A stretch of DNA of 64,000 nucleotides from a virus: positions 1 to 64,000 of IMG/VR virus record IMGVR_UViG_3300035698_004757, one strand, 5' to 3'. The stretch's first letter is position 1; each line of letters begins with the position of its first letter. The translations under genes were made by a program, and so were the position numbers. The notes beneath the pieces were generated by a model, which made no database searches, was not told the origin of the DNA, and saw nothing but the letters and a program-made list of their open reading frames with translations. This document shows, piece by piece, positions 11 through 60,809 of this stretch.

Positions 11-214
11 ATGACTACTGCACTGCGGCAGGTCACGAGGGAGTGTGCGGTCATACTTGGCAATGTCAACGTCGCGCTGGGCAACCCGCGAGAGCATGTG
101 TGGACCCGGCGGGACAAGTACCCGCGCTGCATGGTGTGTGACATCGGGAAGCGTGCGGCCGGTCACGACATGCCATGCCCCGGTAAAGTTGACGCAGCGT
201 CAAAACAGGGTTGA
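11..214 (+). CDS. Small hypothetical protein, His/Cys-rich (possible Zn-binding)
   Basis: 67-aa ORF with HxW...CxxC...CPG; at window edge, start uncertain. Confidence 0.4.
   Translation: MTTALRQVTRECAVILGNVNVALGNPREHVWTRRDKYPRCMVCDIGKRAAGHDMPCPGKVDAASKQG
189..203. repeat. 15-bp palindrome TTGACGCAGCGTCAA (copy 1)
   Basis: Exact match; in ORF 11..214 (VDAASK), 7 bp upstream of TTGACA -35. Confidence 0.9.
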
Positions 215-239
215 CAGGTAATATGTCGTGTGGTACGGT
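211..239 (+). promoter_or_regulatory. Sigma70-type promoter TTGACA-17-TACGGT
   Basis: Perfect -35, 17-bp spacer, TG extension, upstream of ORF 302. Confidence 0.6.
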
Positions 240-301
240 ATATTCCACAAGTCGGGGAGCGCCGCCCGTAAACAGGTGCGACACGTATAGCAGGTGACAC
301 A

Positions 302-961
302 ATGAAACCGGAATCAAAGTATCAGCGCAAGTTGGAGCGAAAGTCCGCGAAGGCAGATCGGAGGCGTCGCAAACTTTCACGTATCGCACAGCAGGCCAAG
401 ACCGAAGCGACAGCGACTACGGATGAGTGGCAGCCGTTGCAGCGGGCCGCGATGTACAACGATACGGTCGCGCAGATGGTGACCGCGAAGCACGACGATA
501 CTTGGATGAATAACCTGTACACCGTGCAGGTGACACGCAACGTGCGGTACGAAGATTCGCCGACGCACCCGCAGGTTCACGAGTTGTCGATTCGCCGCAA
601 CGATCGCCAAGCGGCGTTGGACTGGCGACACTTACAAAAGATCAAAGATGAGTTGGTTGGCGAGAACCACGAAGGCGTGATGTTGTTCCCGCACAGGAAC
701 CGACTGGTGGACACGAGCAATCAGTTTTACGTTTACGTGCTGGCCGACGCTGACCAGACACACCCGTTCGGCATGGACGGCCGGTTGGTCAGTGAGGGTG
801 CGAGCGGCAACGTACAGCGACCTTTCCAGCCCGGGCTACGGCCGGACGACACAGTGGCGGCGTGTGGTGTGCATGTTGATGCAATCAAGGGCGGCGTGTA
901 TGGTGCGCCGTCTGCGTATGAAGTAGAAGTGGATTCGATTCTAAACCCCCCGAAGGAGTGA
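302..961 (+). CDS. Conserved phage hypothetical protein
   Basis: SD AGGTG; motif LSIRRNDR..DWRHLQKIKDELVG..E.V.LFP...RLVD.SNQ typical of a widespread phage family. Confidence 0.75.
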   Translation: MKPESKYQRKLERKSAKADRRRRKLSRIAQQAKTEATATTDEWQPLQRAAMYNDTVAQMVTAKHDDTWMNNLYTVQVTRNVRYEDSPTHPQVHELSIRRNDRQAALDWRHLQKIKDELVGENHEGVMLFPHRNRLVDTSNQFYVYVLADADQTHPFGMDGRLVSEGASGNVQRPFQPGLRPDDTVAACGVHVDAIKGGVYGAPSAYEVEVDSILNPPKE

Positions 962-968
962 CTACACG

Positions 969-1367
969 ATGCCCGATGAGATCCTTATTGTGAACGAGGA
1001 GAAGCACCCGAACCTGTGGAAGCTGACGGCGGGTGTTGTCCCGACTGTTGACGACTCCACGCAGCACCGCGCCGCGGCGCTGTACGCGCAGCTTGCGGGG
1101 CAGTTCGGTGGTGACGACGAAATCATCATGGCCAGCCGTTGGGGTGTGAGGCTCGGCGACGGTAAGAAGTACAACTACGTGGCCGTGAACGCGAACCTGT
1201 ACCGTACGCTCAACGACGCCGAGCGTATTCTGTTTACCGATGTGTTGACGGTGGCGTCACGCCCGAACATCAGCGCAGGTCTCATTGCAGGTGTTGTGAT
1301 GTGGCCCGCTGATCCGGAGACGTTCGATCACAAGACGTTCGACCCGAATACGTCCGACGACCTTTAA
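969..1367 (+). CDS. Hypothetical protein
   Basis: SD AAGGAG, 132 aa, followed by a terminator. Confidence 0.7.
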   Translation: MPDEILIVNEEKHPNLWKLTAGVVPTVDDSTQHRAAALYAQLAGQFGGDDEIIMASRWGVRLGDGKKYNYVAVNANLYRTLNDAERILFTDVLTVASRPNISAGLIAGVVMWPADPETFDHKTFDPNTSDDL

Positions 1368-1381
1368 TCACGTTGGTGCAA

Positions 1382-1419
1382 GGCCGCCCCACCCACGTCG
1401 GGTGGGGCGGTTGTTTTTT
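1382..1419 (+). terminator. Rho-independent terminator
   Basis: Stem CCGCCCCACCC/GGGTGGGGCGG, 5-nt loop, followed by TTGTTTTTT. Confidence 0.85.
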
Positions 1420-1438
1420 ATCTGTAGGGTTACGTCTG

Positions 1439-4410: not shown

Positions 4411-4425
4411 TTGACGCCGCGTCAA
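4411..4425. repeat. 15-bp palindrome (copy 3, central C)
   Basis: TTGACGCCGCGTCAA, intergenic before SD GAGGTG. Confidence 0.85.
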
Positions 4426-4442: not shown

Positions 4443-6239
4443 ATGGCTGACTACGCACTTGCTTTCCGGAACGGGGCTTATGCCGTTTCTAGCACTGTGA
4501 ATATGTTCAATGCAGGTGCGGTGACGCGACCCGCATGGCTGAACGTATGGTTGCGACCGGACGTTGCGCCGGGAGCGTCGCGGAGTCTGGTTGGCTTTAC
4601 AAACGGCTCGCGGTGGTTCCTGTACATCACAAGTAGCACGATTCGCGTATATTGGGCAGGCTCACAATGGGACATCGGTCAGACGTTGACACAGTCCGTG
4701 TGGAATCATTTATTGTTTGTTGAGGTGTCTTCGACCGAGCGGTATTTTTACCTGAACGGCACCAAGTACAGCGACACGACCAGTTGGGGGTCTACGCCCA
4801 CGGGTCTCACAAAAGCGTACGTATTCAATAGCGGTGCTGGTTGGGACTGTGACGCGGACGACTTCGCAGCCCGGCACAACGTGGCTGGGTTCGACGAAGC
4901 TGCGGCCGACGCGATGGCGGCTGACATATGGTCAGGCGGGCCACCCACGGGTAAAGCCGTGGCACCGTATCTTCCTACACACCATTGGCTCATGGACAAC
5001 CGCTTTGGTGGCATCCCGGATCACGGCACGACTGCGGCACCTGTAATTATGATGGTCGAGGACGGTGGCGACCCCGACGATGTGGACTACACTGACACGC
5101 CGATGAGTCCACCGTCTGATTTGGTGGTGCTTGGTAATTCGATCGAACTAACACACGGTGACGTTACACCCGCAACGGCAGACCACACAGACTTCGGGGC
5201 CACGAACGTGACGGGCGGCACCGTGACACGTACGTTCTATGTCCGCAATGACGGTGGTGCAGACATTGCACAGGCTGTCGCGGCTGTCAGTGGCGACGAT
5301 GCCGGTGACTTCACTGTGTTGAGTCAGCCGACTACACCTCTTGCGGCCGAAGGGTTGACGAGTTTCCAAGTGCGGGCCGACCCCAGTGCGCGAGGTGTGC
5401 GTACAACGACTGTGCAGATCGACCACGACGACGCAGCCAAGGCTGACCCATTTACATTCAAAGTGCAGGTCACTGGCCAGAGTTCGTTGATTGTGGTCAA
5501 GGGCAATAGCCAAACAATCAGCGATGCAGACACCACACCCGACCCGGCCGATCACACCGATTTTGGCGATGTGTTGGCGGGCCTTGCTACGGTGACCCGC
5601 ACGTTTACAATTCAGAACACAGGCGAGCTAAGCCTAAACATCACCGACGTGGCGTTGTCAGGGACGGGCACTAGTGCTTACAGCATTGTGTCGCAACCGG
5701 ACGCAACCGTTGCCGCCGGGCAGACGACTACATTCGATGTCACCTTCGACCCCACCGGGGCCGGGGATTTTGACGCGACTGTAACAATCAGCAGCGACGG
5801 TCTCGGCAATGAGTCCTATACTTTTGACCTTACTGGTACGGCCACTGCGCCCGTCATCAGCGTCACGGGTGATGTGCTTAGCTTTGAGCATGAGGTTGGC
5901 GAGACTTCGGACACTGTAACTTTGACAGTGACCAACACAGGGTCCGCCAATCTCGCGCTTGAAGTTGACGGTGGCTTGTCGTGGGTTATCCCGTCTGTGC
6001 AGGCTACGGTTGTGGCACCCGCCGGGTCGGTGCAAATACAGTTCCGCGCTATCACAGTGGGCCTGCCGCTTGGTACACACGCTTCGACAGTGACGCTATC
6101 GGACGCCAACGGGGCTACGACTGACAAGACTCGCGTCATGGAGTTGGTTTTGAAAGAACGTGTGCGACCCAGCAAGACCGCAGGTGCGCAGGTGCGAATC
6201 GAAGAAGGCACACCTGTGTTGCCGTTGAAGGAGAATTGA
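4443..6239 (+). CDS. Putative virion surface protein: LamG/ConA-like N-domain plus choice-of-anchor-D-like Ig domains
   Basis: W.RP..WNHL.FV..YFYLNG LamG-like pattern; two GN..I..D.TP..ADHTDFG..TVTRTF.I.N.G repeats. Confidence 0.7.
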   Translation: MADYALAFRNGAYAVSSTVNMFNAGAVTRPAWLNVWLRPDVAPGASRSLVGFTNGSRWFLYITSSTIRVYWAGSQWDIGQTLTQSVWNHLLFVEVSSTERYFYLNGTKYSDTTSWGSTPTGLTKAYVFNSGAGWDCDADDFAARHNVAGFDEAAADAMAADIWSGGPPTGKAVAPYLPTHHWLMDNRFGGIPDHGTTAAPVIMMVEDGGDPDDVDYTDTPMSPPSDLVVLGNSIELTHGDVTPATADHTDFGATNVTGGTVTRTFYVRNDGGADIAQAVAAVSGDDAGDFTVLSQPTTPLAAEGLTSFQVRADPSARGVRTTTVQIDHDDAAKADPFTFKVQVTGQSSLIVVKGNSQTISDADTTPDPADHTDFGDVLAGLATVTRTFTIQNTGELSLNITDVALSGTGTSAYSIVSQPDATVAAGQTTTFDVTFDPTGAGDFDATVTISSDGLGNESYTFDLTGTATAPVISVTGDVLSFEHEVGETSDTVTLTVTNTGSANLALEVDGGLSWVIPSVQATVVAPAGSVQIQFRAITVGLPLGTHASTVTLSDANGATTDKTRVMELVLKERVRPSKTAGAQVRIEEGTPVLPLKEN

Positions 6240-6242
6240 CCC

Positions 6243-9200
6243 ATGCCCGCAACCGCAACAGTTAGTGGTGCCACGTTTGTGACTGTGCTTAACGCCGAAT
6301 GGCCGGTTACGGGCGGGTCTCGCAACGGCAAAGACATATTCAAGTGCCCCGGCAACCTTTATTGGATGTGGTACCACGACGATAGTGGCGACGGGTTCTA
6401 TGGGGGCGGTAACTTTTGGACGATTGGTGATGCTGATCCCACGAGTTCGCAGCCCGGTTGGATGAATGTTTGGTATTTGGGTTCGGACACTACGTGGCCG
6501 TGGGACGACGCATCGTGGGGCGCTAGTGGCGTGGGGCCGCCGGACGGACCGTTGACTGTGACGGGCAACGCCGTGGTAGGCGTGTACGCCGTCACGAGCG
6601 CAACCCCTGCCGGAGCCAATGGCAATTATCACTTGGTCGACAATACGGGTGAGGACGACTGGAAACAGGACGACACCGCCCGTTACATCTACAAGCAGGG
6701 TGGCTTCTGGCGTCGCGGACCAACACAGGGCGGTGGCGGTGACTACGAAGCAACCGGGCCAGCCGACTCTACTTCACCTGACGATGGTGCGTGGGACGAT
6801 GGGTCATCTGTTGCCGAGGGCACCGTGGCGCGGCAAGTTGTGTACATCGAGTACACGACCGACCCGGACGCAGCGGGTCAGTATTCAGCCCCCGTGTACG
6901 TCAAAGATGGCAACCTGTATTACACCGGACCTAACGGTTTTATCGCCGGTCGCGATCCCGGGACGCCTGACTGGCACATCGAAGCTGAGGATGGGACCGA
7001 AGGCGCGGGCGATGTTGCCGCCGACCACACAAACCCAAGTACCAGTGAATTACTGCCGATGAGCGGTTGGTCAGACGGCGTCGTTGTGCGCGATCCTTAC
7101 ATCACATTCCGCGAGAAGGTCACAAGCAAGTTTTATTCTGACAGTCCGGTTTTTAACGCGCAATACACGGCGTGCGACTTTGCAAACCGCATGGTTGTTT
7201 TGCAGCCGTACAATGACTACAGCAAGCCTGCCGCTGTGGGCGTGCAAGACGCACCGGGTGGCGATTTCACACTTGAGGCTTCGTTGCTACCTGACTTCGC
7301 GGGTCCGGGAAGCCACACGTGGACAGGTTGTGCGATGTCGCGCGTCGATCCGGATGACGACCAAGGTGGGTACCTTGCACTGTGTGGTGACGGCGGGACA
7401 CCTGCACAGATTGTGGTGGTGTATCACCGCGCAGCCGGGGAGACTACGTGGGTTAATGTGATGGTGGCCGAGATACCGACCGGCGGCGGCAACCACGAGC
7501 GCACATCGGTCGCGTTTTCCGACGACGGGCGTTGGGTCTTTGGCACACGCACCGGCGATGCGGCCCCCGGTAACAACTACGTGGTGGTGTGGGAAAACCA
7601 CCCGACGTTGGGTTGGCGTTACGTGCAGACGTTGGAGGCGACGGAGCCAAGCATTGCGCGCATGGGTGTGACAGTTGCATGCGATGGGTCGTACCTGTTC
7701 TTAGGCGCGCTGATGGCCAGCAACGATGACTCTGTCGCAATGTATTACCTTAACGGTGGTGTGTGGACGTACCTCGGCAAAGCACCTGACCCGGACCCCG
7801 GAGAAGTAGGTAAAGGGCGCGGGCAGATTGCGATGGTGTACAGCGACCCGTGGTTGTTCCTCCCCGCCGTTTATTATGGCCGTATTTACATCCACAAACG
7901 CAGTGGTGCCGCAGGTTCGGCGACGTTCCCGCATCACCAGACAATCGCACCCGTCGGTGTGCTATCGGGTTTAACTTTTGGTAACGATACCCGCGCGTAC
8001 AACGGCAACAACATTGTGTTTTCTGCGACGAGCGGGACGCACGGCTACGTGGGTCTGCTGACGTATGACGCAAACGGGGACACGTGGATTGCGGCTGAGT
8101 CCGCAAGCACGGATGACGATGTCGGTGGTGCCTATTCCGGCATCATCCCACTAGACGGCACAGTTGTGTATGGCACCCCCGCGTCCAACGGCCGCCAGAT
8201 GCAGGTGTTTAATTACACGGCTGCACTACCCCCCGGTCCTGATATTGAGGTGTACGGCAATAGCACGTTGATTGCCGACGCTGACGCAACACCTGATGCA
8301 GCCGATCACACTTCCGCAGGCAATGCACAGATTGGTGGCAGCACCGTGACGCGCACGTTGTACATCCGTAACGTGGGTGCGAGCGATTTGAACCTTACCG
8401 GGCCAACACCCGTGACTTTGACCGCAGGCCATACCGGTGACTTCACAATTGTGACGCAGCCGACGCTTGACCCGATTGACGTTGGCGAAGGCAACCAAGT
8501 ATCCGTGCCTGTGCGGTTCTCACCAGTAGCACGAGGCGCACGACAGGCTACGTTGGCGATCGCGAGTGACGACCCGACCGGTCCGTACACACTTGATGTG
8601 GGCGGCACGGGTCAGAGCGCGTTGATTGTTATCAAGGGCAACAGTCAAACGATTGCCAAGGGCGACGTGACACCTGACGCGGCCGATCACACCAGCTTTG
8701 GTGCCGCGACCGCAGGGCAGACCACCGTGGAGCGCACGTTTACGATTCACAACACCGGCGAGTACGACCTCACGATTACAGGTGTGTCGCTGACAACCGA
8801 AGTCAATTACACAATCAGCGAAGAGCCGTTACTTTCGACGGTGCCCGCTGGCCAGACGACTACGTTCAAGGTGCTGTTCGACCCGGCGGCGTCTGGATCA
8901 CTGGGCGACACAATCACGGTTGCCAGTAATGGCTTTGGCGACACGTCGTATGCCTTTGCGATCGACGGCACTGGTGTGGCTCCCGAGATTACGCTGACCG
9001 GCCCCGGCATTGACGTGGAAGTGAACAAGGGTGACTCACCGTCGCCGACTGTGCTTAATGTCGAGAACACCGGGGACGCCACGTTGAGCCTGCGCATCAC
9101 CAAGGGCAACGCAACGTGGCTGACGGTCGCCCCCGCTGCGAGCGAGGTGGCGTCCAGTGCCGACATCGACATCACAGTAAGCATCGCGACGGCTGGGCTG

Positions 9201-9392
9201 GATGAGGGGGACTACACAGCCACCCTGACATTCGCCGACGTAAATGATGCGACGGCCGAAGTGACCCGTGTGATTGCACTGTCGGTCAAACCGTCCGTGC
9301 ATCCCGGTAAGCTGGCGGGCGGCAATGTCGTGGTGGAAGAGTCTGACACAGCCAGTGACCCAGTTTCCGCTAACAGATATCGAACGCGATAG
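6243..9392 (+). CDS. Putative virion surface protein: Trp/Gly-rich N-domains, beta-propeller-like middle, choice-of-anchor-D-like Ig domains
   Basis: C-terminal ~380 aa paralogous to 4443..6239 (ADHTS.G..TVTRT..I.N.G repeats). Confidence 0.7.
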   Translation: MPATATVSGATFVTVLNAEWPVTGGSRNGKDIFKCPGNLYWMWYHDDSGDGFYGGGNFWTIGDADPTSSQPGWMNVWYLGSDTTWPWDDASWGASGVGPPDGPLTVTGNAVVGVYAVTSATPAGANGNYHLVDNTGEDDWKQDDTARYIYKQGGFWRRGPTQGGGGDYEATGPADSTSPDDGAWDDGSSVAEGTVARQVVYIEYTTDPDAAGQYSAPVYVKDGNLYYTGPNGFIAGRDPGTPDWHIEAEDGTEGAGDVAADHTNPSTSELLPMSGWSDGVVVRDPYITFREKVTSKFYSDSPVFNAQYTACDFANRMVVLQPYNDYSKPAAVGVQDAPGGDFTLEASLLPDFAGPGSHTWTGCAMSRVDPDDDQGGYLALCGDGGTPAQIVVVYHRAAGETTWVNVMVAEIPTGGGNHERTSVAFSDDGRWVFGTRTGDAAPGNNYVVVWENHPTLGWRYVQTLEATEPSIARMGVTVACDGSYLFLGALMASNDDSVAMYYLNGGVWTYLGKAPDPDPGEVGKGRGQIAMVYSDPWLFLPAVYYGRIYIHKRSGAAGSATFPHHQTIAPVGVLSGLTFGNDTRAYNGNNIVFSATSGTHGYVGLLTYDANGDTWIAAESASTDDDVGGAYSGIIPLDGTVVYGTPASNGRQMQVFNYTAALPPGPDIEVYGNSTLIADADATPDAADHTSAGNAQIGGSTVTRTLYIRNVGASDLNLTGPTPVTLTAGHTGDFTIVTQPTLDPIDVGEGNQVSVPVRFSPVARGARQATLAIASDDPTGPYTLDVGGTGQSALIVIKGNSQTIAKGDVTPDAADHTSFGAATAGQTTVERTFTIHNTGEYDLTITGVSLTTEVNYTISEEPLLSTVPAGQTTTFKVLFDPAASGSLGDTITVASNGFGDTSYAFAIDGTGVAPEITLTGPGIDVEVNKGDSPSPTVLNVENTGDATLSLRITKGNATWLTVAPAASEVASSADIDITVSIATAGLDEGDYTATLTFADVNDATAEVTRVIALSVKPSVHPGKLAGGNVVVEESDTASDPVSANRYRTR

Positions 9393-9400: not shown

Positions 9401-9883
9401 GTGGCGAAGAAGAGAAAAGCCAAGAAACGTAAGGCCAACACCGGGGAAGCGACAACGCCCGCCCCGGGCACGGAGACGGCTGCGCACGCCGTGTCACCCG
9501 GCGAGGTTCCCTGCCCACCCGCATTGCAGGAAGCCAACGCTGCGGCCTCTCCGTGCCCGGCTCGGCCTAACGTGGCGGTGATTGGACGGCCGTTCACCCT
9601 GATAGTCGATCCGCGACGCCGGGGCACCCCGGTAACGTCGGTCACGCTCCGCAATATGAGTCCGGACGCACTTGACCTTGCTGTGACGGTGGAAGCCCCG
9701 GGGGCAGCAGTACCCACTCAGTTGCACCTTGCCCGTAACGGGGAGGCTACGTTTCGGGTGGCTGTGACCGAAGAAGACGCCACAGGTGTTGTGAGATTGG
9801 TGGCCACGGTGGTGCAGGCCGGTACGGGAGAAGTGGTGCAGATGGTGCCCATTTTCCTGTCCCGTGAGGCACCCGAAAATTGA
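9401..9883 (+). CDS. Hypothetical protein, basic N-terminus plus possible Ig-like domain
   Basis: SD AGGAG, GTG start; VTLRN...L.VTVEAPG...F.V.V beta pattern. Confidence 0.6.
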   Translation: MAKKRKAKKRKANTGEATTPAPGTETAAHAVSPGEVPCPPALQEANAAASPCPARPNVAVIGRPFTLIVDPRRRGTPVTSVTLRNMSPDALDLAVTVEAPGAAVPTQLHLARNGEATFRVAVTEEDATGVVRLVATVVQAGTGEVVQMVPIFLSREAPEN

Positions 9884-9894
9884 CGCTGCGTCAA
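9880..9894. repeat. 15-bp palindrome (copy 4)
   Basis: TTGACGCTGCGTCAA; contains the TGA stop of 9401..9883. Confidence 0.9.
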
Positions 9895-46563: not shown

Positions 46564-46578
46564 TTGACGCTGCGTCAA
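46564..46578. repeat. 15-bp palindrome (copy 13)
   Basis: TTGACGCTGCGTCAA; intergenic. Confidence 0.9.
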
Positions 46579-49955: not shown

Positions 49956-52781
49956 GTGGCTAACATCACTATGACAGGCGGCATTGTCCTGTCGGTGATG
50001 GTCGATGGGACTACGAAGGCGGCCCAGTCATCGACTGGTACCGTCAACGTGATACCTGCGCTCGGAGGTGGCTTTACAACGGGCCTCTCGGGCGGCATCG
50101 ACTTGTCACTTGACATGGACGGTGGGCAACCGGCGGGTGGTGTGATTGGCTCGGTCAATCTTGCCCCGGGCGTGGGCGGTTTGTTCGCGTGGACATGGCA
50201 GCCCGGGGTGGCTTTGTCTGCGAAGGTGCAAGGTGCCCCACGACGGGACGTGCCTATCACTGGTGGTGTCGCCGTGACGATGGCGTTGGGCGGCGACATT
50301 GAACGCGCAGCCGAAGAGATTGAAGGCGGCGTGGATTTGGCCCCCTCACTGGGGGGCACGCTGGCTCGGGCCTTTAGCGGTGCTGGCCCCGGACTCATTA
50401 CGAACGTGTTTCTCGGGGGGCGCATCCGCACGGTCCGGCCGTCAACAGGTACAGGCGGTGAGGATCGCCGTGCTGCGTTGGGGTATCGCCCAAACATACC
50501 TTTGCTGGTTCGCAGTATTGACGCAGCGTCAATCGCAGAAGTGGCCGCAGCAAATGTGTCCGATGGCGGGCGCTTCCTTGTTGCAGCGGACTACTCCGAA
50601 GGCGACGAGGTAACGTGGGATGGTGCTGGCGCTATGGCCGGTGCCATTGGCCAATACGTGGAGCCTGCGATTGGCGACCCCTACTATGTGTTCTTGCAGC
50701 CCAAGCCTTACGAGGTGGTGTGGTACACACCCTTGACGGGTGACGGTGTCCCGTCTGATGGCGGGATGTATCGAATTGAAGACGGCGCGTGGATGCCGTA
50801 TCGGTCATTCCCGGAACGCGCCGTCTTGTCGCAATGGGCGATCGAGATACTGGACCCGGACGGTGCGTTGGGTTACCTGACCCGCTTGCTCGGAGCCGCG
50901 CACACACAGTGGACCCGTGACGCAACCGACTTGAGTTTTTTACTCGACTCGCGATCGTGCCCGGACCGTTTCCTGACGCAGTTGGCGAAGCAATGGAACT
51001 TGCGTCTGCGTACCAGCGACCCAGCCATGCAGCGACGGCGTCTCCGTGGTGTGGTGCCGCGACATCGGGCCAAGGGTTTGCCGTCACTGGTTACGACTAC
51101 GCTTCGTGAACTTGGGTACGACGGTTATCCGATGGAGGTGTGGGTCGATCCGACGCATGCTGATAATTGGTTGGACCCGACTGGTGCCCCGGCGGCGGTG
51201 CAAGCCGAGATTGCAGCGCGTGGGTTGGTCATCGACCCGACGAACGGTGAAAAGGGTACCGCGTGGATTCCTAAGTTTCATGGGTGGTCACCCGACCTGC
51301 CGGACACGTATTGGCCTGCGAGCCGCGTGGGCATCCACCTAACGACGGCCACGGGCGCATCACTTCCACTTAACATGCCTGAGTCCGCGTTTGACGAAGT
51401 GCGGCAAATGCTTGCGGAGGAACTGATACGCGACACACTCCCAGCGCATGTGGACATCCGATACTTCGCGACTGATGTGTCACCGGACGCAGGCGACAGT
51501 ATCGGTGTGACGGATGAGTTGGCGTTTGTGGACTTTGGCACGGGTGCAACTTACACGTTGGGCGGCTTCGGTATGGCCGCGACCGGGTCGATCACGTTCA
51601 CGGGTCAGCCCGACGATGGCGACACAGTGACGATCGACGACGGGACTACCACTGTGACGTTTGAGTTCGACACAGGGGATGGTGTGACGCCCGGCAACGT
51701 CGCGGTGTTGATTGGAGCCACGACACAAGACACGGCTGACAATCTTGAAGCTGCGATCGACAGTTCAGCTTTGGACGTGGATGCTGTGGACGCCACGGTG
51801 ACGGACCCGCGCGTGGGGATCATTCACGGTTCGATCGGCGTCGGGGGCAATGAAACAATTACAACCGACTCAGGTGCAGTGACCGTGACGGGTATGCAGT
51901 TCGGGTCAGGTGACATTGGCGACGAGTCAGTGCGCCGCGTTCTGTTTGAGCCTGAAATAGACGGTCGGTTTGACGAAGACTACGCCATCGAGGGTGAAGT
52001 GCCGGTGGTGTGGACCACGGGTGGCACCGCGTACGCAGCACAACGGATCACCGGCGGCGTCAATGTTACAACCACGATGGGTGGCGTCATCGGCATGAGC
52101 ATGGGCGGCGGCGTCGTTCTCGGTGTTGACGTGGGTGGTACGTTTGCACTGGTGCCCGGCGTGGACCCTGTGCTGGTGCTGAGCATGGTGCTTGGTGGCC
52201 ATGAGACGGTGGACCCGGCTGACGACGTGGCGGCCAGTTATGTCCTGTCAGGCGGCGTTGCACTGGGTATGGACGTGCAGGGCGGCACACCTTCGCTTAT
52301 TGGCGTGGACAGTCCGGCAATCGTGTTGAGTCTGAACCCCGGGGTGAAGTTCACCACGTCTGTGACCGGCGTCGAAGTCGGTATGGTTCTTGGTGGGCAG
52401 ATCACAGTCAACCGTGCAGTGACCGGTGGGTCTACGTCGTCGATGGCACTGGGTGGTGGCGTGGGCGGCGCAGACACGATGACGGGTTCAATCATCCTGT
52501 CGCCGGTGTTGGGCGTCGTATGGATCAGGGACACGATTGAAGGCGGCATCGCACCCAGTATGGTTATTGGTGGTGGCTTCTTCTGGACGCAGACGGGTGC
52601 TATCGTTCTCAGTCCGCAGGTGATCGGCAGCGTCGTTGTTCCGGACGAAGAATTGTGGGCTGCGTTTATTACGCTCGGACCCGCAGTCGTGGGCGGCATC
52701 CCCGGGGGCTACGTGGTGGCAGGTGACATATCACCTACAATGGTGCTTGGTGGCACCCTGAACGTACAACGCATTTTGTAA
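49956..52781 (+). CDS. Baseplate/tail protein (P2 gpI/gp7-like core) with Gly-rich repeats and a TFEFD module
   Basis: LLD...CP.RFL..LA..W......QRRRL...V..H..KG..S....L..LGY core. Confidence 0.7.
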   Translation: MANITMTGGIVLSVMVDGTTKAAQSSTGTVNVIPALGGGFTTGLSGGIDLSLDMDGGQPAGGVIGSVNLAPGVGGLFAWTWQPGVALSAKVQGAPRRDVPITGGVAVTMALGGDIERAAEEIEGGVDLAPSLGGTLARAFSGAGPGLITNVFLGGRIRTVRPSTGTGGEDRRAALGYRPNIPLLVRSIDAASIAEVAAANVSDGGRFLVAADYSEGDEVTWDGAGAMAGAIGQYVEPAIGDPYYVFLQPKPYEVVWYTPLTGDGVPSDGGMYRIEDGAWMPYRSFPERAVLSQWAIEILDPDGALGYLTRLLGAAHTQWTRDATDLSFLLDSRSCPDRFLTQLAKQWNLRLRTSDPAMQRRRLRGVVPRHRAKGLPSLVTTTLRELGYDGYPMEVWVDPTHADNWLDPTGAPAAVQAEIAARGLVIDPTNGEKGTAWIPKFHGWSPDLPDTYWPASRVGIHLTTATGASLPLNMPESAFDEVRQMLAEELIRDTLPAHVDIRYFATDVSPDAGDSIGVTDELAFVDFGTGATYTLGGFGMAATGSITFTGQPDDGDTVTIDDGTTTVTFEFDTGDGVTPGNVAVLIGATTQDTADNLEAAIDSSALDVDAVDATVTDPRVGIIHGSIGVGGNETITTDSGAVTVTGMQFGSGDIGDESVRRVLFEPEIDGRFDEDYAIEGEVPVVWTTGGTAYAAQRITGGVNVTTTMGGVIGMSMGGGVVLGVDVGGTFALVPGVDPVLVLSMVLGGHETVDPADDVAASYVLSGGVALGMDVQGGTPSLIGVDSPAIVLSLNPGVKFTTSVTGVEVGMVLGGQITVNRAVTGGSTSSMALGGGVGGADTMTGSIILSPVLGVVWIRDTIEGGIAPSMVIGGGFFWTQTGAIVLSPQVIGSVVVPDEELWAAFITLGPAVVGGIPGGYVVAGDISPTMVLGGTLNVQRIL
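50518..50532. repeat. 15-bp palindrome (copy 14, intragenic)
   Basis: Exact; encodes IDAASI. Confidence 0.9.
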
Positions 52782-53700: not shown

Positions 53701-56700
53701 ATGGCTGAGACGTCGCCCGACTACTCTGTACTTCCTCACGTGTCGATTGGTGGTGTGCCCCCGATCGGCGGGTATGACATTGACGCCAATGACTTGCCCG
53801 CGCTCCGCGCTATCAAGGTGACCAACCTTGTCGGCCCGGGTGCTGCGAACATGCAGCCGAACGCGCTGCACAAACGCGACCTATTCATACTCGACCGTCT
53901 CATGTCTCTGGTCGCGAACATGAACGCGCTAACCGGCAAGGATTCAACCGGGCAGGACATCACCGGTGACGGTTTGCCCGTGTACCTATCGCGCTTCGGC
54001 GAGTTGCCCATGCAGGCCGATTTGAAGATGGGTGATAACAAGATCACCGGACTCAAGGCAGCTACGGCGGGGTCCGATGCTGTGCGACTCGATCAGTTGA
54101 CCGGCGTGGACACGAGCAACTTCCTACTGCGCACGGGTGCCAACACATGGACCGGCCCGGCTCCGTTGAAGATGTCCCCTGACAATGGGACTACTCGGTT
54201 TCAGATCAAAGAGGGTGCGGCAGGCACAGACCCAACTGACTTTGTTGTTTTGTCCCAGCTTCAAGACGTGGCAGTAGAAGGCGGTGTGGGGGGCATGCTG
54301 GTGGACTACCGCACGGGGCGCGTGGAGAATCCGCAGGACGTGGGCGATGCGGTAAACGACCCTGCTATTACATTCGTTTTGGACAACCCTTACGCAACTG
54401 TGTACGCATTCGATGCCACGTTCTTTGTGACTGATACTGGCGGTTCTTTTGCACACACATTTTTGGACTTCAAGTACGACGTGGCGACGCGGCAGATGAC
54501 CGGCGGGCTGCTGTACACCGGCAACAACCTGTCACATGACCCTACGGGTTCATTTGACGTGACCATCCCCGAGAACGGAACACTGACAGATGTCATCACA
54601 TTGCTGAGCAACGACAATGGTGGGTCAGCCGGATCACCTAACTACGTGATTATCCGTGCCGCGTACATCACCTCGTCTGGTGCGCCGTCACAGCTTGTCA
54701 TCAACATCTTCTTCTCAAACAACGGGACTACGGCGTTTCACCATCGCGCAGGAACATGGCGCGCATTAGGCTTCAACGGTTTTGGCGGCGTGGGTCAACC
54801 AACCCAAGCAGGCACCACATACATCCCTGTGACCGCACATTCAAGTGGCGTGGCGCTGCGACAGTATTCCGACGCCGCTGGTAACCATGACTTTAGCTAT
54901 GCGCTCGACGGATTCCCGGGCGTGGACAAGGACCGCATCATTGGCGCGTTTGTGCGTGTGTGGGTGCAGGGCCGCAACGGTAAGTATTCACGTTTGCTCG
55001 CCCGCGTCGGTAACGACGCGGGTGCGTTCACAACCATCTTTTCGTCAGAGGGTGCCAATAATGGCGACGATTGCGGCAGTGAGTCGCTTGTGTTGGTGCC
55101 GATCAATCGGCAACAGTCGTTGCTTGATTTTCGCTTATCTCTTGAAACCACCAGTACAGGTGGCGACGTGGATGCGAGAACCGCGACGCAGGCTGTGGAC
55201 TACACCATCGAAGGCTTCCTTGTCACGGCGACGCCGCAGTCGGGTGGGTCAGGTGGCTCGGGCGGTTCTGGTGGCGGGGGCTTGGTGTACCGCAGTCCGT
55301 GGACGCCAGTTGACGCCACGGTCGCAGCGCAACGGGTGCAGACCTTCGCACACAACCTTGGCATCATCCCCGACTTCATTTCGGTGTACTTTCGTTACGA
55401 GACCTCACCCGGCGTGTATAACGTCGTGCAGTTGCAGCGCACCGAAGGCGACGCGGGTGACGACGAGAATGTGTCTGTAACCAGCATCGACACAGCAGCC
55501 CTAACGGCGCAGATTGCGCCCGCAGGCTTTAGCTTTACCGACGCCAACGTGAACCCGGGGTACGAGACTTCGCTAACCGCCGGTGAGATTCAAGTCGTGG
55601 CCGGTGCAATTGTCCCCAGCGCGTCCGCCGGGCTTGGCGCACAGTTGTACGCGGCACCGGTGTTCATCGGTGGCGACAGTGACGACAACTATTGGCAGCA
55701 GTACACATCACCATCGGACTACCACGTGGTTGACACGGTGCGACCTAATGGCATTGCACTGTTGCAAGTTGACCTGTTCAGCGCAGGTCCGGATGTGCAA
55801 GTGTACGATGCTGCGCATCCGCGTTATTACCTTGACGGTGCTGCGGGGTTCTCCCGCGAGTTGGTAGTCTCCGCAGTCTCCTTCGGCGACGGTGTGGGCC
55901 AGTCAACGCAGGCCATCGCAAAATTAGACGACGGGGGTGGCTTGACCTTCCGTGTGGACGGCACCCCTGCTGGCAGCTTCCGGTACCGCATCCAACACCT
56001 CGGTTGGGTGACAGAGGGTGCCGATCCGATTGCGCCTTCCACGGCCCCGCTAATGTTTGCAGACTACCAGCATGGCTCGTTCGGGCATGACGACACAGTG
56101 CCGTTCACGCTGAATCTTGGCGACGCGGACACTTACATTATCAATGGCGCGTTTGGTATGTGGGGTGTGTCGGCATCCAGTGAAGAAGATCACGCAAGCA
56201 TCCAGTTGCGATACGATGCCGCGACACGTCAATTGACTGGCGAACTGCTGTACGTGCCCGGTACCAATGTGGACGCAGCGACGGTTGCCGATGTCATTCT
56301 CCCCACCAATGGCGACGTGACGTTGTGCGCACTGCATGGCGGTGGGTCTGCCACGAAGGGTGTGCGATTGCGTGCTGCGTATGTGACAGGCGACCCCAAC
56401 ACGCTCAAGGTCTACGTTAATTACTTCGATACCGCGATCAACGGCAACGACTCGGTCACCGGCCGGGGCATGGCGGGTCGCTGGTCGGCCGTGGGTTACT
56501 TGCAAGATGTGACGGCTGCGCTGGGCACCAACGAGCAAGGCACGCTTCTGTACCAGACAGGTGACACGGGTGCGGCGGGCGTCAATCAGAACATTTATGA
56601 CACGTGGGTGGCAGTGGATGCGTCGGCCAAGATCGTCGGCACGGCTAAACGACTACTGGTGTGGGTGGACGCGACGGAGGCCGCCGTGCGCATCCGCGAT

Positions 56701-56985
56701 CAGAAATTGCGCACGACCCCGCTTAAAGCGGTGGCGTCGTTTGAAGCGGACCACCTCGGCCGGACGCCCGGGTCAACGTCACCATCCACGGTGCAAACTG
56801 AATTGGACATGTACGCCGCAGGGTACGGCCGCGAGAGGGAAGTGGTCACGGCCGGGATCAATGTGCGCGATGCGGCTGTGGTTGAAGTCGAGCCGGACAG
56901 CGACGGCAAGTTCCGTGTGCGGGTGTCGCGCACTGACCCGACTGCATATTCCGCTCGCCTGTGGCTGCTTGACGTTATTGATTAA
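53701..56985 (+). CDS. Tail fibre / receptor-binding protein
   Basis: ATG 53701; N.QPN.L..RD..; two KIT.L.A....DAV...QL-type neck motifs; modular C-terminal beta domains. Confidence 0.75.
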   Translation: MAETSPDYSVLPHVSIGGVPPIGGYDIDANDLPALRAIKVTNLVGPGAANMQPNALHKRDLFILDRLMSLVANMNALTGKDSTGQDITGDGLPVYLSRFGELPMQADLKMGDNKITGLKAATAGSDAVRLDQLTGVDTSNFLLRTGANTWTGPAPLKMSPDNGTTRFQIKEGAAGTDPTDFVVLSQLQDVAVEGGVGGMLVDYRTGRVENPQDVGDAVNDPAITFVLDNPYATVYAFDATFFVTDTGGSFAHTFLDFKYDVATRQMTGGLLYTGNNLSHDPTGSFDVTIPENGTLTDVITLLSNDNGGSAGSPNYVIIRAAYITSSGAPSQLVINIFFSNNGTTAFHHRAGTWRALGFNGFGGVGQPTQAGTTYIPVTAHSSGVALRQYSDAAGNHDFSYALDGFPGVDKDRIIGAFVRVWVQGRNGKYSRLLARVGNDAGAFTTIFSSEGANNGDDCGSESLVLVPINRQQSLLDFRLSLETTSTGGDVDARTATQAVDYTIEGFLVTATPQSGGSGGSGGSGGGGLVYRSPWTPVDATVAAQRVQTFAHNLGIIPDFISVYFRYETSPGVYNVVQLQRTEGDAGDDENVSVTSIDTAALTAQIAPAGFSFTDANVNPGYETSLTAGEIQVVAGAIVPSASAGLGAQLYAAPVFIGGDSDDNYWQQYTSPSDYHVVDTVRPNGIALLQVDLFSAGPDVQVYDAAHPRYYLDGAAGFSRELVVSAVSFGDGVGQSTQAIAKLDDGGGLTFRVDGTPAGSFRYRIQHLGWVTEGADPIAPSTAPLMFADYQHGSFGHDDTVPFTLNLGDADTYIINGAFGMWGVSASSEEDHASIQLRYDAATRQLTGELLYVPGTNVDAATVADVILPTNGDVTLCALHGGGSATKGVRLRAAYVTGDPNTLKVYVNYFDTAINGNDSVTGRGMAGRWSAVGYLQDVTAALGTNEQGTLLYQTGDTGAAGVNQNIYDTWVAVDASAKIVGTAKRLLVWVDATEAAVRIRDQKLRTTPLKAVASFEADHLGRTPGSTSPSTVQTELDMYAAGYGREREVVTAGINVRDAAVVEVEPDSDGKFRVRVSRTDPTAYSARLWLLDVID

Positions 56986-56995
56986 GGACTACGCG

Positions 56996-57622
56996 ATGCC
57001 CGAAGCAACGAAGACTGTGATTGTGAACTTGGACGCCGACCGCCATATCTATTTGGAGGTGTTTGAGGGTGAGGACTTGCAGACGCCCTTGCAACTCAAC
57101 AAGGGTCACGTCGCGTGGGACTTATCCGATGCGACAGAGGTTCACGTCGAATACTCGTATCGCGACACATTCGTGTGGGAGGAAGTTTGGACGGCGCAGC
57201 GCACCGGCGAGGATTGGGCGACTGGGCTTTTGCTGCTCAATACACCCGCTCAAGTAACGGGACAAGCTGCGGGCACCTTCCGCGTCACAATGGCCGTCAG
57301 CTTCCCTAATGCTTTGGAGGTCATCATCGACCCCAGCTTTGTCGAGGTTCACCCTCAGCGGGGCTACACCGCTCGCAAGCTGGCTACCCATGTGGACGTG
57401 CCTGTGGACGTGTCAGGGGCACCTACGGCTGCACAGGCGATTGAAGGTGGCGTGGTGTCAACCGTGGCAATGGGTGGCCGGATTGAAGACCTCGGTGACA
57501 TTATCGACGGCGGTGTGGTTGTTGCACACGCTACGGGCGGTACAATGCCCGTGACGCGAAAAGTTGCGGGGCAAGTCGTGGTGACGCCTACTGTGGGTGG
57601 CCAACTGCCGCGTAACATTTGA
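56996..57622 (+). CDS. Structural protein (BppU-like N-domain plus Gly-rich repeats)
   Basis: SD AAGGA before ATG 56996; GED....L.L......DLS.A pattern; I.GGVV...MGG repeats. Confidence 0.55.
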   Translation: MPEATKTVIVNLDADRHIYLEVFEGEDLQTPLQLNKGHVAWDLSDATEVHVEYSYRDTFVWEEVWTAQRTGEDWATGLLLLNTPAQVTGQAAGTFRVTMAVSFPNALEVIIDPSFVEVHPQRGYTARKLATHVDVPVDVSGAPTAAQAIEGGVVSTVAMGGRIEDLGDIIDGGVVVAHATGGTMPVTRKVAGQVVVTPTVGGQLPRNI

Positions 57623-57633
57623 CGCAGCGTCAA
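57619..57633. repeat. 15-bp palindrome (copy 15)
   Basis: Exact; contains TGA stop of 56996..57622. Confidence 0.9.
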
Positions 57634-57661: not shown

Positions 57662-58342
57662 ATGCTTATGCTTGCGATGTTTAACCTATTCCTATTGGCG
57701 CAGGATGTCGCGCCTGCTGCTGCGGCCGCACCCGCAGTGGACCCCACCATGCCCATATGGTTGCAAGGCTTGCTTGGCCTTATTTCAACCGTCATCACGC
57801 TCGCGCTGATCCCTTACCTGACTCGCAAGGCCAACGAAGCCGAAGCCGAGATGGAGCGGGCACAGGCGGAGACCACCAACGCCAACGTGACGACCCAAAG
57901 CATCATCATCCAACGGCTCAAAGCGTTCATCTATCGCGTCGTCGCCGATGTGATGGAACGCGAGTTTATGCGTGTCGTCGAAGCCATCGCACGCGGTGAG
58001 TTGCGAACAACCGAACAGATAAAAACTGAGTTGTCGCGGTTACATGCCATTGTGCGTGATCGCGCTATCGCTCACTTCGACGGGCAAGGCATCAACATCA
58101 TTGCCGCCGCCGGTGACGAATTACTGGACAGCTTCATTGAGTCTGCCGTTAACAAGTTCAGCCCCTTCCCCGGAAGCGACACTGCAAAAACCTTGCTCAC
58201 TGAACATGTGTCGAATTGGCTTGTGAACAAAGGTGTGGACTACGCACGTAATCGGTGGATCACTGGGCAGGGGCAGGAATCTGTTGCAGCGCACGCTGCT
58301 GCAACAGGCCCGGTTACGACGGGTGAACCTCAGCCGGAGTAA
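57662..58342 (+). CDS. Holin-like membrane protein (LL-H-like)
   Basis: SD AAGGAG; TM segment LLGLISTVITLALIPYL followed by a soluble helical domain ending LD.FIESAV. Confidence 0.5.
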   Translation: MLMLAMFNLFLLAQDVAPAAAAAPAVDPTMPIWLQGLLGLISTVITLALIPYLTRKANEAEAEMERAQAETTNANVTTQSIIIQRLKAFIYRVVADVMEREFMRVVEAIARGELRTTEQIKTELSRLHAIVRDRAIAHFDGQGINIIAAAGDELLDSFIESAVNKFSPFPGSDTAKTLLTEHVSNWLVNKGVDYARNRWITGQGQESVAAHAAATGPVTTGEPQPE

Positions 58343-58885: not shown

Positions 58886-58907
58886 CAACCCCGAAAGGAC
58901 TACCACC

Positions 58908-59795
58908 ATGTGGCTATCAGGTATCATCCAAGGTCTCCTTACTGCCTTGCTCAAGTATTGGGACTCAACCAACAAGCAGAAGACGGCGCAAGCCAACGAA
59001 TACCGCGCGATCGGCCGCGAGGCCCAACTCGAAAGCGTCAAGACCAACACACAAGTACAGGCCCGCATCAAAGCGGCCGTGGAGGCACCACGTCCGCCGA
59101 TACGCACGGCTGCGCAGTGGAATGCTGCGGGCATGTTGCTGCTGGTGTGCATGCTGTCACTTACGGGATGCGGGGCATGGACCAAAGTGGTTTATGCGAC
59201 GCACCCCATGCCATACATTGCGATGCCGGAACGTCCGGTACTCGACGAACAAGCACCGCCCATGACGGCCAACGGCCAGCGGGTCATGGACTACGCGATG
59301 CAATTAGAAGCGGGCATCAATGCCTACAACAAGGAAGCGAACAAACACAATGTCCTGTACAGCTACGAAGACGCAGATATCCGAAACGATCCGGCAGACG
59401 ACCAAGGGCCGCCTACTGGGCCTGTGGAAAGTATTGAACGACCTGCGGACCCAGTCGGTTCCAGCGCCATTCGCACTACTGATCCTCAAGAACTTTGCGC
59501 TGATTCAGGGGCAAGTTCTGCCGCACGTGCAAGAGGTCGAAGCCCCCGCAAACATATGCGATTATGTCGCGGGGCTACATCAGGTACAGGTCAAGAGCGC
59601 TGGCGACGACCGCGAGGCGAACATTGCGACGTACCAACAGGCGCACCCGGAAGAACACGCGATGCACGTGGCGCACTTGAGCAAGATCGAAACATTGTTG
59701 GCCGAAGCGATCGACGTAACGACGCACACGATGCCGCTGGAAGCATTCCCGGATATGTCGCCGGAACAACTCAACCGCTTGCTGCTGTTGGTTGA
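58908..59795 (+). CDS. Spanin-like protein: N-terminal anchor and coiled coil fused in frame to a lipobox-containing segment
   Basis: SD AAGGA before ATG 58908; MLLLVCMLSLTGC (Cys 59169-59171) then Pro-rich MPERP.L; 3' half overlaps the next gene. Confidence 0.5.
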   Translation: MWLSGIIQGLLTALLKYWDSTNKQKTAQANEYRAIGREAQLESVKTNTQVQARIKAAVEAPRPPIRTAAQWNAAGMLLLVCMLSLTGCGAWTKVVYATHPMPYIAMPERPVLDEQAPPMTANGQRVMDYAMQLEAGINAYNKEANKHNVLYSYEDADIRNDPADDQGPPTGPVESIERPADPVGSSAIRTTDPQELCADSGASSAARARGRSPRKHMRLCRGATSGTGQERWRRPRGEHCDVPTGAPGRTRDARGALEQDRNIVGRSDRRNDAHDAAGSIPGYVAGTTQPLAAVG

Positions 59796-59832
59796 CGACG
59801 AACCTAAGAAAGCCGATCCAACCGAAGGGTGA
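59350..59832 (+). CDS. Hypothetical helical protein common at phage tail-module ends
   Basis: AAGGA upstream; FAL.I.KN...I ... LL.E.IDV......LE.FP..SPEQL..L..LV.D pattern; terminator follows. Confidence 0.65.
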   Translation: MSCTATKTQISETIRQTTKGRLLGLWKVLNDLRTQSVPAPFALLILKNFALIQGQVLPHVQEVEAPANICDYVAGLHQVQVKSAGDDREANIATYQQAHPEEHAMHVAHLSKIETLLAEAIDVTTHTMPLEAFPDMSPEQLNRLLLLVDDEPKKADPTEG

Positions 59833-59857
59833 CTACCCCCGCTTGGCTTCCTTTCCC

Positions 59858-59903
59858 TACCCGGCACCCCCTATGGTCCACACCACGGGTGCCGGGTATT
59901 TTT
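59858..59903 (+). terminator. Terminator ending the late/structural region
   Basis: TACCCGGCACCC...GGGTGCCGGGTA stem, then TTTTT. Confidence 0.75.
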
Positions 59904-59965
59904 ATGCGCGTCACGGCCGGGTGGGGGCATAATCATTGTTTTTCGTATAATCCGGGATATGCCGC

Positions 59966-59993
59966 TTGACACGGGGAAGCGGCGCGGTATCAT
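59966..59993 (+). promoter_or_regulatory. Sigma70-type promoter TTGACA-16-TATCAT
   Basis: Upstream of ORF 60042, after terminator. Confidence 0.6.
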
Positions 59994-60041
59994 GCACGGG
60001 TCAAGCGGAAGAATCGAACCCTCAGATAAGGACACACAACA

Positions 60042-60809
60042 ATGGCAACTTTCACACCTTTCGGTCTGGTGGAACTTCGCGACCTGCTCAAACAATCAAA
60101 AGGTTGGTTTGAAGCTGACGCAAGTACAATCCCCGCAAACACAGGTGAGGTGGTGCTGGACTTCTGGCCCGGTTCATTCAAAGCTGCGGGTCGCAATATC
60201 GTTATCCGTGTGTACACGCGTATCGACCCGAATACCGGGCAGGTGCGGACCTGTGGCGCTGACGCAATCCGGGTGTGCGCTGTGGACCTCGACCATAACA
60301 AGGGGTACATCAAGGCGCGCCGCGTGCATCGTGTAAAGGGCTGGCGTGATAATATGACAAATCGCATCATGGACGTTGTGCAAGCGGCGCTCGATCGCTG
60401 CGCAAGAGAGGCAAGCACGACTACTGTGGCACCGGCCCCGCTGAAACCTGCGCACCCCACAATCCCGGCCGACTGCAAGACGAAGAAGTCCAAGCTGGCG
60501 TGGCTTCGCGATCAGTGCAGCGCGGACGATGCGGTGGCGCTGGCCGTCGTGCAAACCATATTCAATTTCCAGACCGTGTATGAGCAAGACGCGGGTACGA
60601 CGGTCGAAGATAACGGTGTTGGGTTCTCGGGCATCGACGCGGAACTGCTGACCAGTTTTGTGCAGCAGTTTGAGGCGCGTCACGGGCTGTCGCCGAAACA
60701 ACTCGTGCTGCTGCGGGCCAAGGCCGCGAAGTACGCGAAGCAATACCTGACGGTCACCGGGAAGTTTGACGCTGCGTCAATTTTCGCTGTGCAAGAGGTG
60801 GCGAGATGA
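60042..60809 (+). CDS. Two-domain phage hypothetical protein
   Basis: SD AAGGA; IRVYT.I...G..R..G.DAIRV..RV.R..GWR.N domain plus NGVGFSG.DA..L.SF..LS.KQ..KYA.Q domain. Confidence 0.75.
   Translation: MATFTPFGLVELRDLLKQSKGWFEADASTIPANTGEVVLDFWPGSFKAAGRNIVIRVYTRIDPNTGQVRTCGADAIRVCAVDLDHNKGYIKARRVHRVKGWRDNMTNRIMDVVQAALDRCAREASTTTVAPAPLKPAHPTIPADCKTKKSKLAWLRDQCSADDAVALAVVQTIFNFQTVYEQDAGTTVEDNGVGFSGIDAELLTSFVQQFEARHGLSPKQLVLLRAKAAKYAKQYLTVTGKFDAASIFAVQEVAR
60766..60780. repeat. 15-bp palindrome (copy 16, intragenic)
   Basis: TTGACGCTGCGTCAA; encodes FDAASI. Confidence 0.9.

Follow-up and report, generated by a model that had tools for sequence, protein, structure and literature searches.

An evenly spaced palindrome array in an uncultured T4-like phage and its candidate reader, an orphan ParB

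Why would a viral genome repeat the same 15-bp palindrome, TTGACGC-N-GCGTCAA, every few kilobases along its length, even within its longest genes? The question arises from IMG/VR record IMGVR_UViG_3300035698_004757 (hereafter G000), a 97,672-bp contig, about 70% complete by CheckV, of an uncultured T4-like myovirus; its first 64 kb constitute the stretch of DNA referred to below as the window. Genes were assigned from open reading frame (ORF) maps made within the present analysis. With moderate confidence, we read the palindromes as genome-wide parS/OB-like loading sites of the phage's own orphan ParB clamp, which would operate much as KorB does. We infer each part of this proposal: the identity of the binder as ParB, its use of CTP and its sliding, and the purpose of the coating; any single downstream role is held with much lower confidence than ParB as the reader.

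The array and its spacing

The window contains 16 copies of the palindrome, 15 of them exact and one (14415) with a single mismatch, in full agreement with the first-pass annotation of this sequence. That annotation put the chance expectation far below 1, and dinucleotide-preserving shuffles yield 0.02, with none of 100 shuffles reaching 16. A scan of the entire contig gives 27 copies across 97.7 kb, 25 exact and two with one mismatch. There are no near-matches with two mismatches, and the six with three correspond to the chance level, so the copies are all-or-none, either perfect or absent. None of the positions flanking the aligned copies is conserved or informative, and the unit is therefore exactly 15 bp. 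The center base is A in 16 of the 27 copies, T in nine, C in one and G in one; a comparison of A with T (15 versus 8) reveals no significant bias. Isolated half-sites were rejected as a separate signal; they are only mildly above expectation, and Asp-Ala codons account for the excess. Nor are the palindromes an artifact, an explanation that the first-pass annotation had kept in view, since copies lie in frame inside long ORFs and act as stop codons.

Gaps between successive copies range from 1,224 to 7,101 bp over the whole contig, with a mean of 3,714 bp and a coefficient of variation (CV) of 0.48. None of 5,000 random placements attains a CV this low, whether sites are placed uniformly or at gene ends only (p<2e-4), and the minimum and maximum gaps are likewise extreme. 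The suggestion of selection on spacing made in the first-pass annotation is supported, if indirectly, and this is a rare case in which the spacing of the sites, not their position, is under selection.

All G000 genes are on the + strand. By context, nine of the 27 copies are intergenic, six supply TGA stop codons, seven are found no more than 150 nt from where a gene starts or ends, and five are deep within genes. The figure of six stop codons follows the gene map and becomes seven if the copy at 57619, which ends ORF 56561-57622, is included. Within the window, the previously reported tally of six intergenic copies, four TGA stops (9880, 23390, 32864 and 57619) and six in-frame copies holds. 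Four of the five deep intragenic copies over the whole contig are located in the longest genes (2,740, 1,583 and 941 aa). In-frame copies are always read as Asp-Ala-Ala-Ser (D-A-A-S), which raises the question of whether it is the peptide that is conserved. Two exact copies (positions are given without strand) are deep in the 2,740-aa gene: the peptide encoded at 16898-16912 is unconserved among orthologues, and the segment that includes 21065-21079 is missing from them. Orthologues also lack the segment around the exact copy at 40419-40433, deep in the 1,583-aa tape-measure-like gene. At 50518-50532, an exact copy in the 941-aa gene, they have SVLN, DVSH, DVAT or DIQS, and a further exact copy encodes D-A-A-S at 60766-60780, within the final 44 nt of ORF 60042-60809. 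In the relatives' orthologues, then, the residues differ or the segment is absent; D-A-A-S falls in non-conserved or inserted protein segments, so the DNA sequence and not the peptide is kept. As a separate observation, the 2,740-aa protein (window 14431-22653) is encoded in the head-gene region and has a NUDIX domain (residues 1127-1229) as its sole family match; its orthologues in relatives measure 2,589-3,298 aa.

A ParB-family protein as candidate reader

The first-pass annotation recognized no cognate DNA-binding protein in the window. The candidate is found beyond it, at contig 81063-82175, 17 kb past the window end, where a ParB/Noc/KorB-type gene encodes a protein of 370 aa. The protein matches the Pfam families ParB_N with 32.5 bits (cut-off 26.3) and HTH_ParB with 34.4 bits (cut-off 22.6), and it contains the GxxR nucleotide-binding box as GERR, which is conserved throughout the clade save for GHRR in the relative G018. 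Its best solved sequence relatives are Caulobacter ParB (6T1F, 5e-11), Thermus Spo0J and Noc, and its helix-turn-helix (HTH) region aligns to the DNA-binding domains of Caulobacter ParB and Spo0J. The AF2 model has a pLDDT of about 90 over residues 51-260, and Foldseek relates it to KorB (8QA9, TM 0.71), Noc (7NFU, 0.65-0.67) and ParB structures. Residues 285-360 form a confidently predicted three-helix domain that is conserved in the clade (LLWDRG) and covered by none of the listed solved matches; it is a candidate for the C-terminal dimerization domain of the family. Residues 1-50 constitute a disordered, Lys-rich tail without the LG[KR]GL peptide, the normal means by which ParB activates ParA. 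ParA itself (PF13614, PF01656) was not detected in G000 or in the relatives G001, G007, G018 and G012, with positive controls. The system therefore departs from canonical ParABS, having no detected ParA, no LG[KR]GL peptide and sites that are dispersed rather than clustered.

Relatives were collected from IMG/VR by alignment-based search. A scan for the exact pattern was abandoned as a route to them, since each of the 80 stretches among the matches listed has a single copy, and a single-protein capsid search found none. Contigs of 140-157 kb carry capsid homologues 45-57% identical to that of G000; the nearest by capsid (80% identical) lies on a 5.8-kb contig. Megablast of 20 kb found no cultured close relative, the capsid protein is at most 28% identical to that of any cultured phage, and ParB is at most 31% identical to proteins of cultured phages over half its length. 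All three relatives of 90% completeness or more encode a ParB homologue, as does one 74-kb fragment. HTH_ParB matches once per genome, except in G007, where the Pfam model misses the ParB. In all 13 loci the gene is found between the uvsX-like and FEN genes, in the replication/recombination module; a methyltransferase gene adjoins it in G000 and G012 only.

Each of these phages has a dyad motif of its own, and regularity of spacing varies. The motif is KTRACAC-W-GTGTYAM in G001, TTTACGC-W-GCGTAAA in G012, GTGACA-N3-TGTCAC in G007 (17 exact copies) and TTGACA-N3-TGTCAA in G004 and L201. G003, L195 and L209 share GGTGAC-N5-GTCAC, L207 and L211 share CTAGACA...TGTCTAG, and L214 has ATTAACGA-N-TCGTTAAT. 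About 40 copies of the 17-mer GTGAACCGCCGTTTCAC occur in G018; one of its positions is fixed and asymmetric, with the same facing relative to genes in 35 of 40 copies, and a perfectly symmetric variant, GTGAAACGSCGTTTCAC, is present too, for example directly after parB. Spacing is over-regular in G007 and G018 (p<2e-4), as it is in G000, and less markedly so in G001, G003 and G004 (p between 0.007 and 0.05 according to the null chosen); G012 contains tandem pairs, and its regularity is not significant. The TGA of the motif serves as a stop codon in G001, G007, G018 and G004 as well.

Motif class follows the ParB recognition helix. The helix HQxVRR accompanies ACGC-W-GCGT cores (G000 and G012), and H[PV]x[K]VRR accompanies GACA(C) cores; L195 and L209 have identical ParB helices and share a motif class, as do L207 and L211. 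The ParB tree places G000 with G001, L201 and L214, apart from G012 (support 93/95, long branches), so the pairing of HQ with ACGC is not simply inherited. The promoter of parB provides a second connection. In G000 it is sigma70-like, and the left arm of a palindrome copy forms its -35 hexamer; the same arrangement is seen in G001, L201 and L194, with the -10 box at 16-17 bp. Three half-sites surround the parB promoter of G012, and in all, seven to eight of 13 lineages have a site in the 100 bp or so upstream of the parB frame. Elsewhere the sites turn over: only about 26% of G000 gene-start sites are matched at the orthologous gene in another genome, and conservation of site positions at orthologous genes is weak (Fisher p 0.06 to 1).

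In three lineages a site also occurs inside parB itself (L195:10227, L208:2100 and L209:10101), where the conserved codons for G-D-I-E-S-L spell the lineage motif GGTGACATCGAGTCACT, an arrangement that recalls the internal parS site of Bacillus spo0J. As a further observation, the distant AT-rich T4-like fragments L145, L147 and L148 carry a GC-rich, non-palindromic 12-mer, TTCGCCGTCCAA, at six to seven copies per 20 kb of 32%-GC DNA. It is probably a different repeated signal, and ParB_N was not detected in the 136-kb fragment of this set.

Dyad symmetry and independent arms call merely for some dimeric reader, and the sites might thus be operators of another dimeric protein, with ParB doing an unrelated job in the replication module. 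Such a protein could be an unannotated phage product, one encoded in the missing 30% or so, or a host factor; G000 encodes an HU/IHF-like protein (contig 89934-90392) and G001 a Cro/C1-type HTH protein. We consider this explanation rather unlikely. Among sequence-specific HTH families, ParB alone was found in every near-complete genome, the parB promoter retains a site in most lineages while other positions turn over, and the motif class tracks the recognition helix. A host factor in particular would hardly keep pace with eight or more different motifs in related phages.

Several points nevertheless weigh against ParB as a CTP-dependent reader. Its link to the motif is correlative, drawn from comparison of sequences, and another reader could exist, given that many small ORFs are without a family match on a contig about 70% complete. 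The covariation of helix and motif is largely confounded by phylogeny and comes down to one independent contrast (n=2, long branches). The parB promoters of G007 and L214 have no site. Every complete member of the clade possesses both ParB and an array, leaving no natural negative control, and the ParB-less distant T4-like records are all fragments of at most 42% completeness, uninformative in this role. The slightly asymmetric variants are strand-oriented (35:5 in G018 and 19:1 in G001), for which a symmetric dimer has no obvious need. Most G000 sites adjoin no recognizable promoter, and the enrichment of promoters downstream of sites is significant relative to uniform placement, not relative to the gene-end null. 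Finally, the ENxxR motif (box III) is required in the CTP-dependent clamp cycle of ParB-type proteins, and box III reads ENSE[DE]GR across the clade, with two extra residues before the Arg, so CTP use is plausible from the sequence and not assured.

Promoters, hairpins and phage enzymes

The arms of the palindrome invite a simpler explanation, namely that the motif is mainly a promoter element whose -35-like TTGACG is recognized by host RNA polymerase, perhaps with a phage activator, such that copies mark transcription units. Half-sites resemble TTGACA in nearly all lineages, and there are about as many sites as one would expect transcription units. Eight of the 22 strong sigma70-like promoter candidates in G000 have a site as the -35 box or within 60 bp upstream; dispersed sites form four of these -35 boxes (including that of parB), with a -10-like hexamer at 16-18 bp, and four more lie within 60 bp upstream, the remainder being intragenic or without a nearby promoter. 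Sites with a properly spaced -10 outnumber isolated TTGAC[AG] hexamers in proportion, at 4/27 versus 7/140 in G000, 5/11 versus 8/170 in G001 and 6/17 versus 10/156 in G004. Within the window, the exact copy at 9880-9894 supplies the stop of ORF 9401-9883 and is followed from 9900 by a sigma70-like promoter (TTGGCA-N17-TAATAT); that at 32864-32878, the stop of ORF 31287-32867, has promoter-like TTGCAG-N17-TATCAT 5 nt downstream; and the exact copy at 189-203, located where a short open frame ends close to the contig start, has TTGACA 7 nt downstream.

We judge this explanation very unlikely. Several sites are 1-19 nt from a start codon, too close for a -35 box. The exact copy at 29724-29738 is intergenic and 1 nt 5' of the ATG at 29740, and the one-mismatch copy at 14415-14429 stands 1 nt 5' of the ATG of the 2,740-aa gene. 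Exact intergenic copies at 2391-2405 and 4411-4425 (center C) precede ORFs 2413-2922 and 4443-6239 by 7 and 17 nt, and the exact copy at 23390-23404, whose TGA ends ORF 22650-23393, is followed by the next gene 19 nt on. Further exact copies lie at greater distances, 26 nt (46564-46578, intergenic, before ORF 46605-47021), 28 nt (57619-57633, before ORF 57662-58342) and 49 nt (36304-36318, intergenic, before ORF 36368-37198) upstream. Neither a -10 nor any other position shows conservation at a constant distance from the site, 23 of the 27 G000 sites have no spaced -10, and a promoter needs no perfect twofold symmetry. Copies also occur deep in genes, positions are not conserved at orthologues, and no sigma70-family gene was found in the genomes searched. 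A fixed promoter cassette was rejected, the flanks being unconserved and the distance to promoters variable.

A third possibility is that the motif acts as an RNA or single-stranded DNA stem-loop, whether in a PeSL-like cassette, in mRNA processing or stability, or as a priming or hairpin-promoter signal. A stem of 6 bp and a loop of 3 nt can be drawn, most copies are at gene ends in a genome transcribed from one strand, and a strand-specific role would agree with the orientation bias seen in G018 and G001. Pairing, however, is not what is preserved. In G001, two arm positions alternate between two bases on each side independently, leaving positions 1/15 and 3/13 unpaired in nine and eight of 20 copies, A-C mispairs included. 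The five central bases of the G003 motif vary freely with the arm sequence fixed, and in G007 too the center is free and the arm sequence fixed; a structural hairpin needs no strict sequence identity. The independent arms of G001 and the free center of G003 argue for half-sites read by a dimer on the duplex, not for a selected stem; the hairpin was rejected for want of covariation between the arms, and neither a T-run nor a fixed promoter follows the site. PeSL-type features are likewise lacking (no conserved flank, no fixed promoter distance and no covarying arms in G001). We regard a stem-loop as highly improbable. The first-pass annotation had proposed binding sites for a dimeric protein, with which the dyad, the independent G001 arms and selection at the DNA level are all consistent, if indirectly; the downstream role may be roadblock or silencing, or else chromosome organization.

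One repeat does resemble the shuffling cassettes of T4-type phages, a resemblance that speaks for the stem-loop explanation. At contig 71157-72600 (L005:11157-12600), an N6/N4 DNA methyltransferase gene of low GC3 (0.42) is located between two direct repeats, each composed of a palindrome copy plus a TTGACA-N16-TATACT promoter; both copies belong to the eight promoter-associated cases counted above for G000. The unit looks like a recent gene capture through duplication of a promoter cassette.

The gene content of G000 suggests a last alternative, that the palindromes are targets of a phage enzyme, either a PD-(D/E)XK nuclease that starts recombination-dependent replication or a methyltransferase or other modifying enzyme. 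The contig encodes a PDDEXK_15 nuclease, an SNase homologue, two N6/N4 DNA methyltransferases and Rad50/Mre11-like proteins, and Type II-like dimers read exact palindromes, which would explain the all-or-none conservation. Against this, nothing found connects such genes with the motif, the methyltransferase gene adjoining parB is limited to G000 and G012, and the other is the recent low-GC3 insertion. The usual recognition sites of such enzymes are 4-8 bp, and cutting one's own genome at 27 sites would need tight control. We find this explanation extremely doubtful.

The rest of the genome is that of a T4-like phage. Structural genes include a gp23-type capsid, gp21-type prohead protease, tail sheath and gp20-type portal, and the replication genes include a DnaB-like helicase, primase, gp32-like protein, RecA/UvsX-like protein and FEN-type exonuclease. 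The family-A DNA polymerase (contig 74272-77418, L005:14272-17418) has an N-terminal uracil-DNA-glycosylase-superfamily domain fused to its exonuclease and polymerase domains. The search for the gp45 clamp family was run without a positive control. No tyrosine integrase was found in G000 and three near-complete relatives, nor in any of the five genomes searched, and with no ParA detected either, the phage looks virulent. No HTH_3 (Cro/C1-type) gene was found in G000, whereas one is present in G001 and a weak match occurs in G012; no tRNA genes that could hint at a host were found.

Three further loci are recorded for the window. Positions 4443-9392 encode two large proteins (598 and 1,049 aa) with HYDIN/DUF1573-type Ig-like domains, one with a weak viral BACON match as well; they may be modules for surface decoration or adhesion and give a weak hint of the host. 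Positions 11947-13284 encode a zeta-toxin/AAA_33-type kinase-like protein with a faint match to 5-hmdU DNA kinase, possibly hinting at DNA base modification. A DEAD/RecQ-like helicase (62033-64000, the gene extending to contig 64933) has a HINT/intein-like insert with a weak PT-HINT match over residues 189-276.

Known systems and what a phage ParB lattice would mean

The first-pass annotation compared the array with stoperators and with matS or RacA sites, and neither comparison fits well. Cluster A stoperators resemble the phage sites in being tens of near-identical short sites, some of them intragenic, with a lineage-specific consensus that co-evolves with the binder. They differ in that they are asymmetric, follow the direction of transcription and bind the immunity repressor of a temperate phage, whereas the present site is a true palindrome in a virulent-looking phage whose contig contains no detected immunity-type repressor. 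The sites of matS/MatP and ram/RacA are confined to one chromosomal domain, unlike those of the phage. Given that the likely binder is a ParB/Noc/KorB-type protein, the closest analogues are instead KorB-OB, Noc-NBS and parS.

KorB of plasmid RK2, in its CTP-bound form, loads at OB sites, slides up to 1.5 kb and silences promoters (PMC11790492). Like the phage system, KorB/OB combines a ParB-family HTH protein with odd-length palindromes (OB core TTTAGCSGCTAAA; PMC11790492, PMC13768133), and in both the sites extend across the entire replicon, some at promoters (the regulator's own included), some near them and some far away. KorB alone has a ParA partner (IncC), clamp-locking partners (KorA and TrbA) and a plasmid host replicon; the phage has no detected ParA, an apparently virulent T4-like genome of about 140 kb, and some 40 sites per genome that are kept evenly spaced and in some cases placed within coding sequence. 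No orthology at the sequence level is claimed. Noc of Bacillus (7NFU, 7OL9) is likewise an orphan ParB paralogue without the ParA-binding motif, and it reads many scattered palindromes. Noc, however, has an N-terminal membrane-targeting helix and acts in division-site selection, where the phage protein has its disordered Lys-rich tail, and the NBS is an even palindrome of 16 bp in contrast to the 15-bp phage site.

The parS/ParB and BisD/bisS systems also pair a strict palindrome with a ParB-fold clamp, and their sites may be intragenic. BisD of ICEclc loads as a clamp at odd-length palindromes, as the phage site is, then spreads across some 50 kb and controls distant promoters (PMC12409273). 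Both systems use few, clustered sites and long-range spreading, whereas the phage has many sites at even intervals; canonical ParB, moreover, works with ParA and SMC in segregation, and ParA was not found here. A 2025 survey of the ParB-CTPase fold takes in phages and, in the part available to us, describes no genome-wide site array (PMC12704722).

The only genome-wide dyad arrays of phages that we found in the literature are the repeats of Cluster O mycobacteriophages, more than 30 copies of the 17-bp dyad TGTTCGG-N3-CCGAACA, whose function was left unexplained (PMC4351075, PMC6439249). Those genomes share with the present ones invariant arms, a scatter of copies of which many lie at a distance from promoters, a non-temperate lifestyle and a gene for a ParB-like domain protein. 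They belong to unrelated Mycobacterium siphoviruses, however, and their authors predicted a dimeric binder, judged a role of the ParB-like domain protein in genome stability unlikely and drew no link between it and the repeats (PMC4351075, PMC6439249). Even spacing and turnover of the motif with its reader were not analyzed in that work.

For the present array, with ParB as the reader, the following sequence of events is envisaged. Host sigma70 RNA polymerase would transcribe parB early, from a promoter with the left arm of one palindrome copy as its -35 box. A ParB dimer would dock on each 15-bp dyad through its HTH domains and, once bound, would repress its own promoter and a subset of promoters that overlap or adjoin sites, some of them early. 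If it behaves like ParB, Noc, KorB and BisD, it would then close into a CTP-dependent clamp and slide off the site. With sites every 3.7 kb or so and no gap above 7.1 kb, even clamps of short range could reach the whole chromosome. Such coverage would account for the even spacing, the copies in the longest genes and the turnover of positions with spacing retained. Its purpose may be to silence genes (early ones in particular), to compact phage DNA or mark it in the replication/recombination factory, or to set timing.

More tentatively, it may be that an entire clade of uncultured, apparently virulent T4-like phages recruited an orphan ParB clamp as a core component of the replication/recombination module, with a self-renewing lattice of sites that would keep clamps on every kilobase, a form of phage-specific chromatin. 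This chromatin could mark, compact or shield replicating DNA, or it could time expression as a sliding signal. A sliding signal of that sort exists in the T4 gp45 clamp, which times the late promoters. CTP clamps of the ParB family have established roles in the segregation of chromosomes and plasmids (ParB), in nucleoid occlusion (Noc) and in gene control on plasmids and integrative elements (KorB, BisD). ParB as phage chromatin, if true, would be a role outside segregation and outside plasmids, and no such use of this segregation protein has yet been worked out for any lytic phage. Lytic phages would then run the same CTP switch with many evenly spaced sites instead of few clustered ones. Site sequence and recognition helix would drift together between lineages, yielding a natural series of orthogonal ParB-site pairs. 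The proposal would also offer a testable explanation for genome-wide dyad repeats in phages, unexplained since those of the Cluster O mycobacteriophages (2015), and it would give a new angle on how large phages organize or time their replicating DNA.

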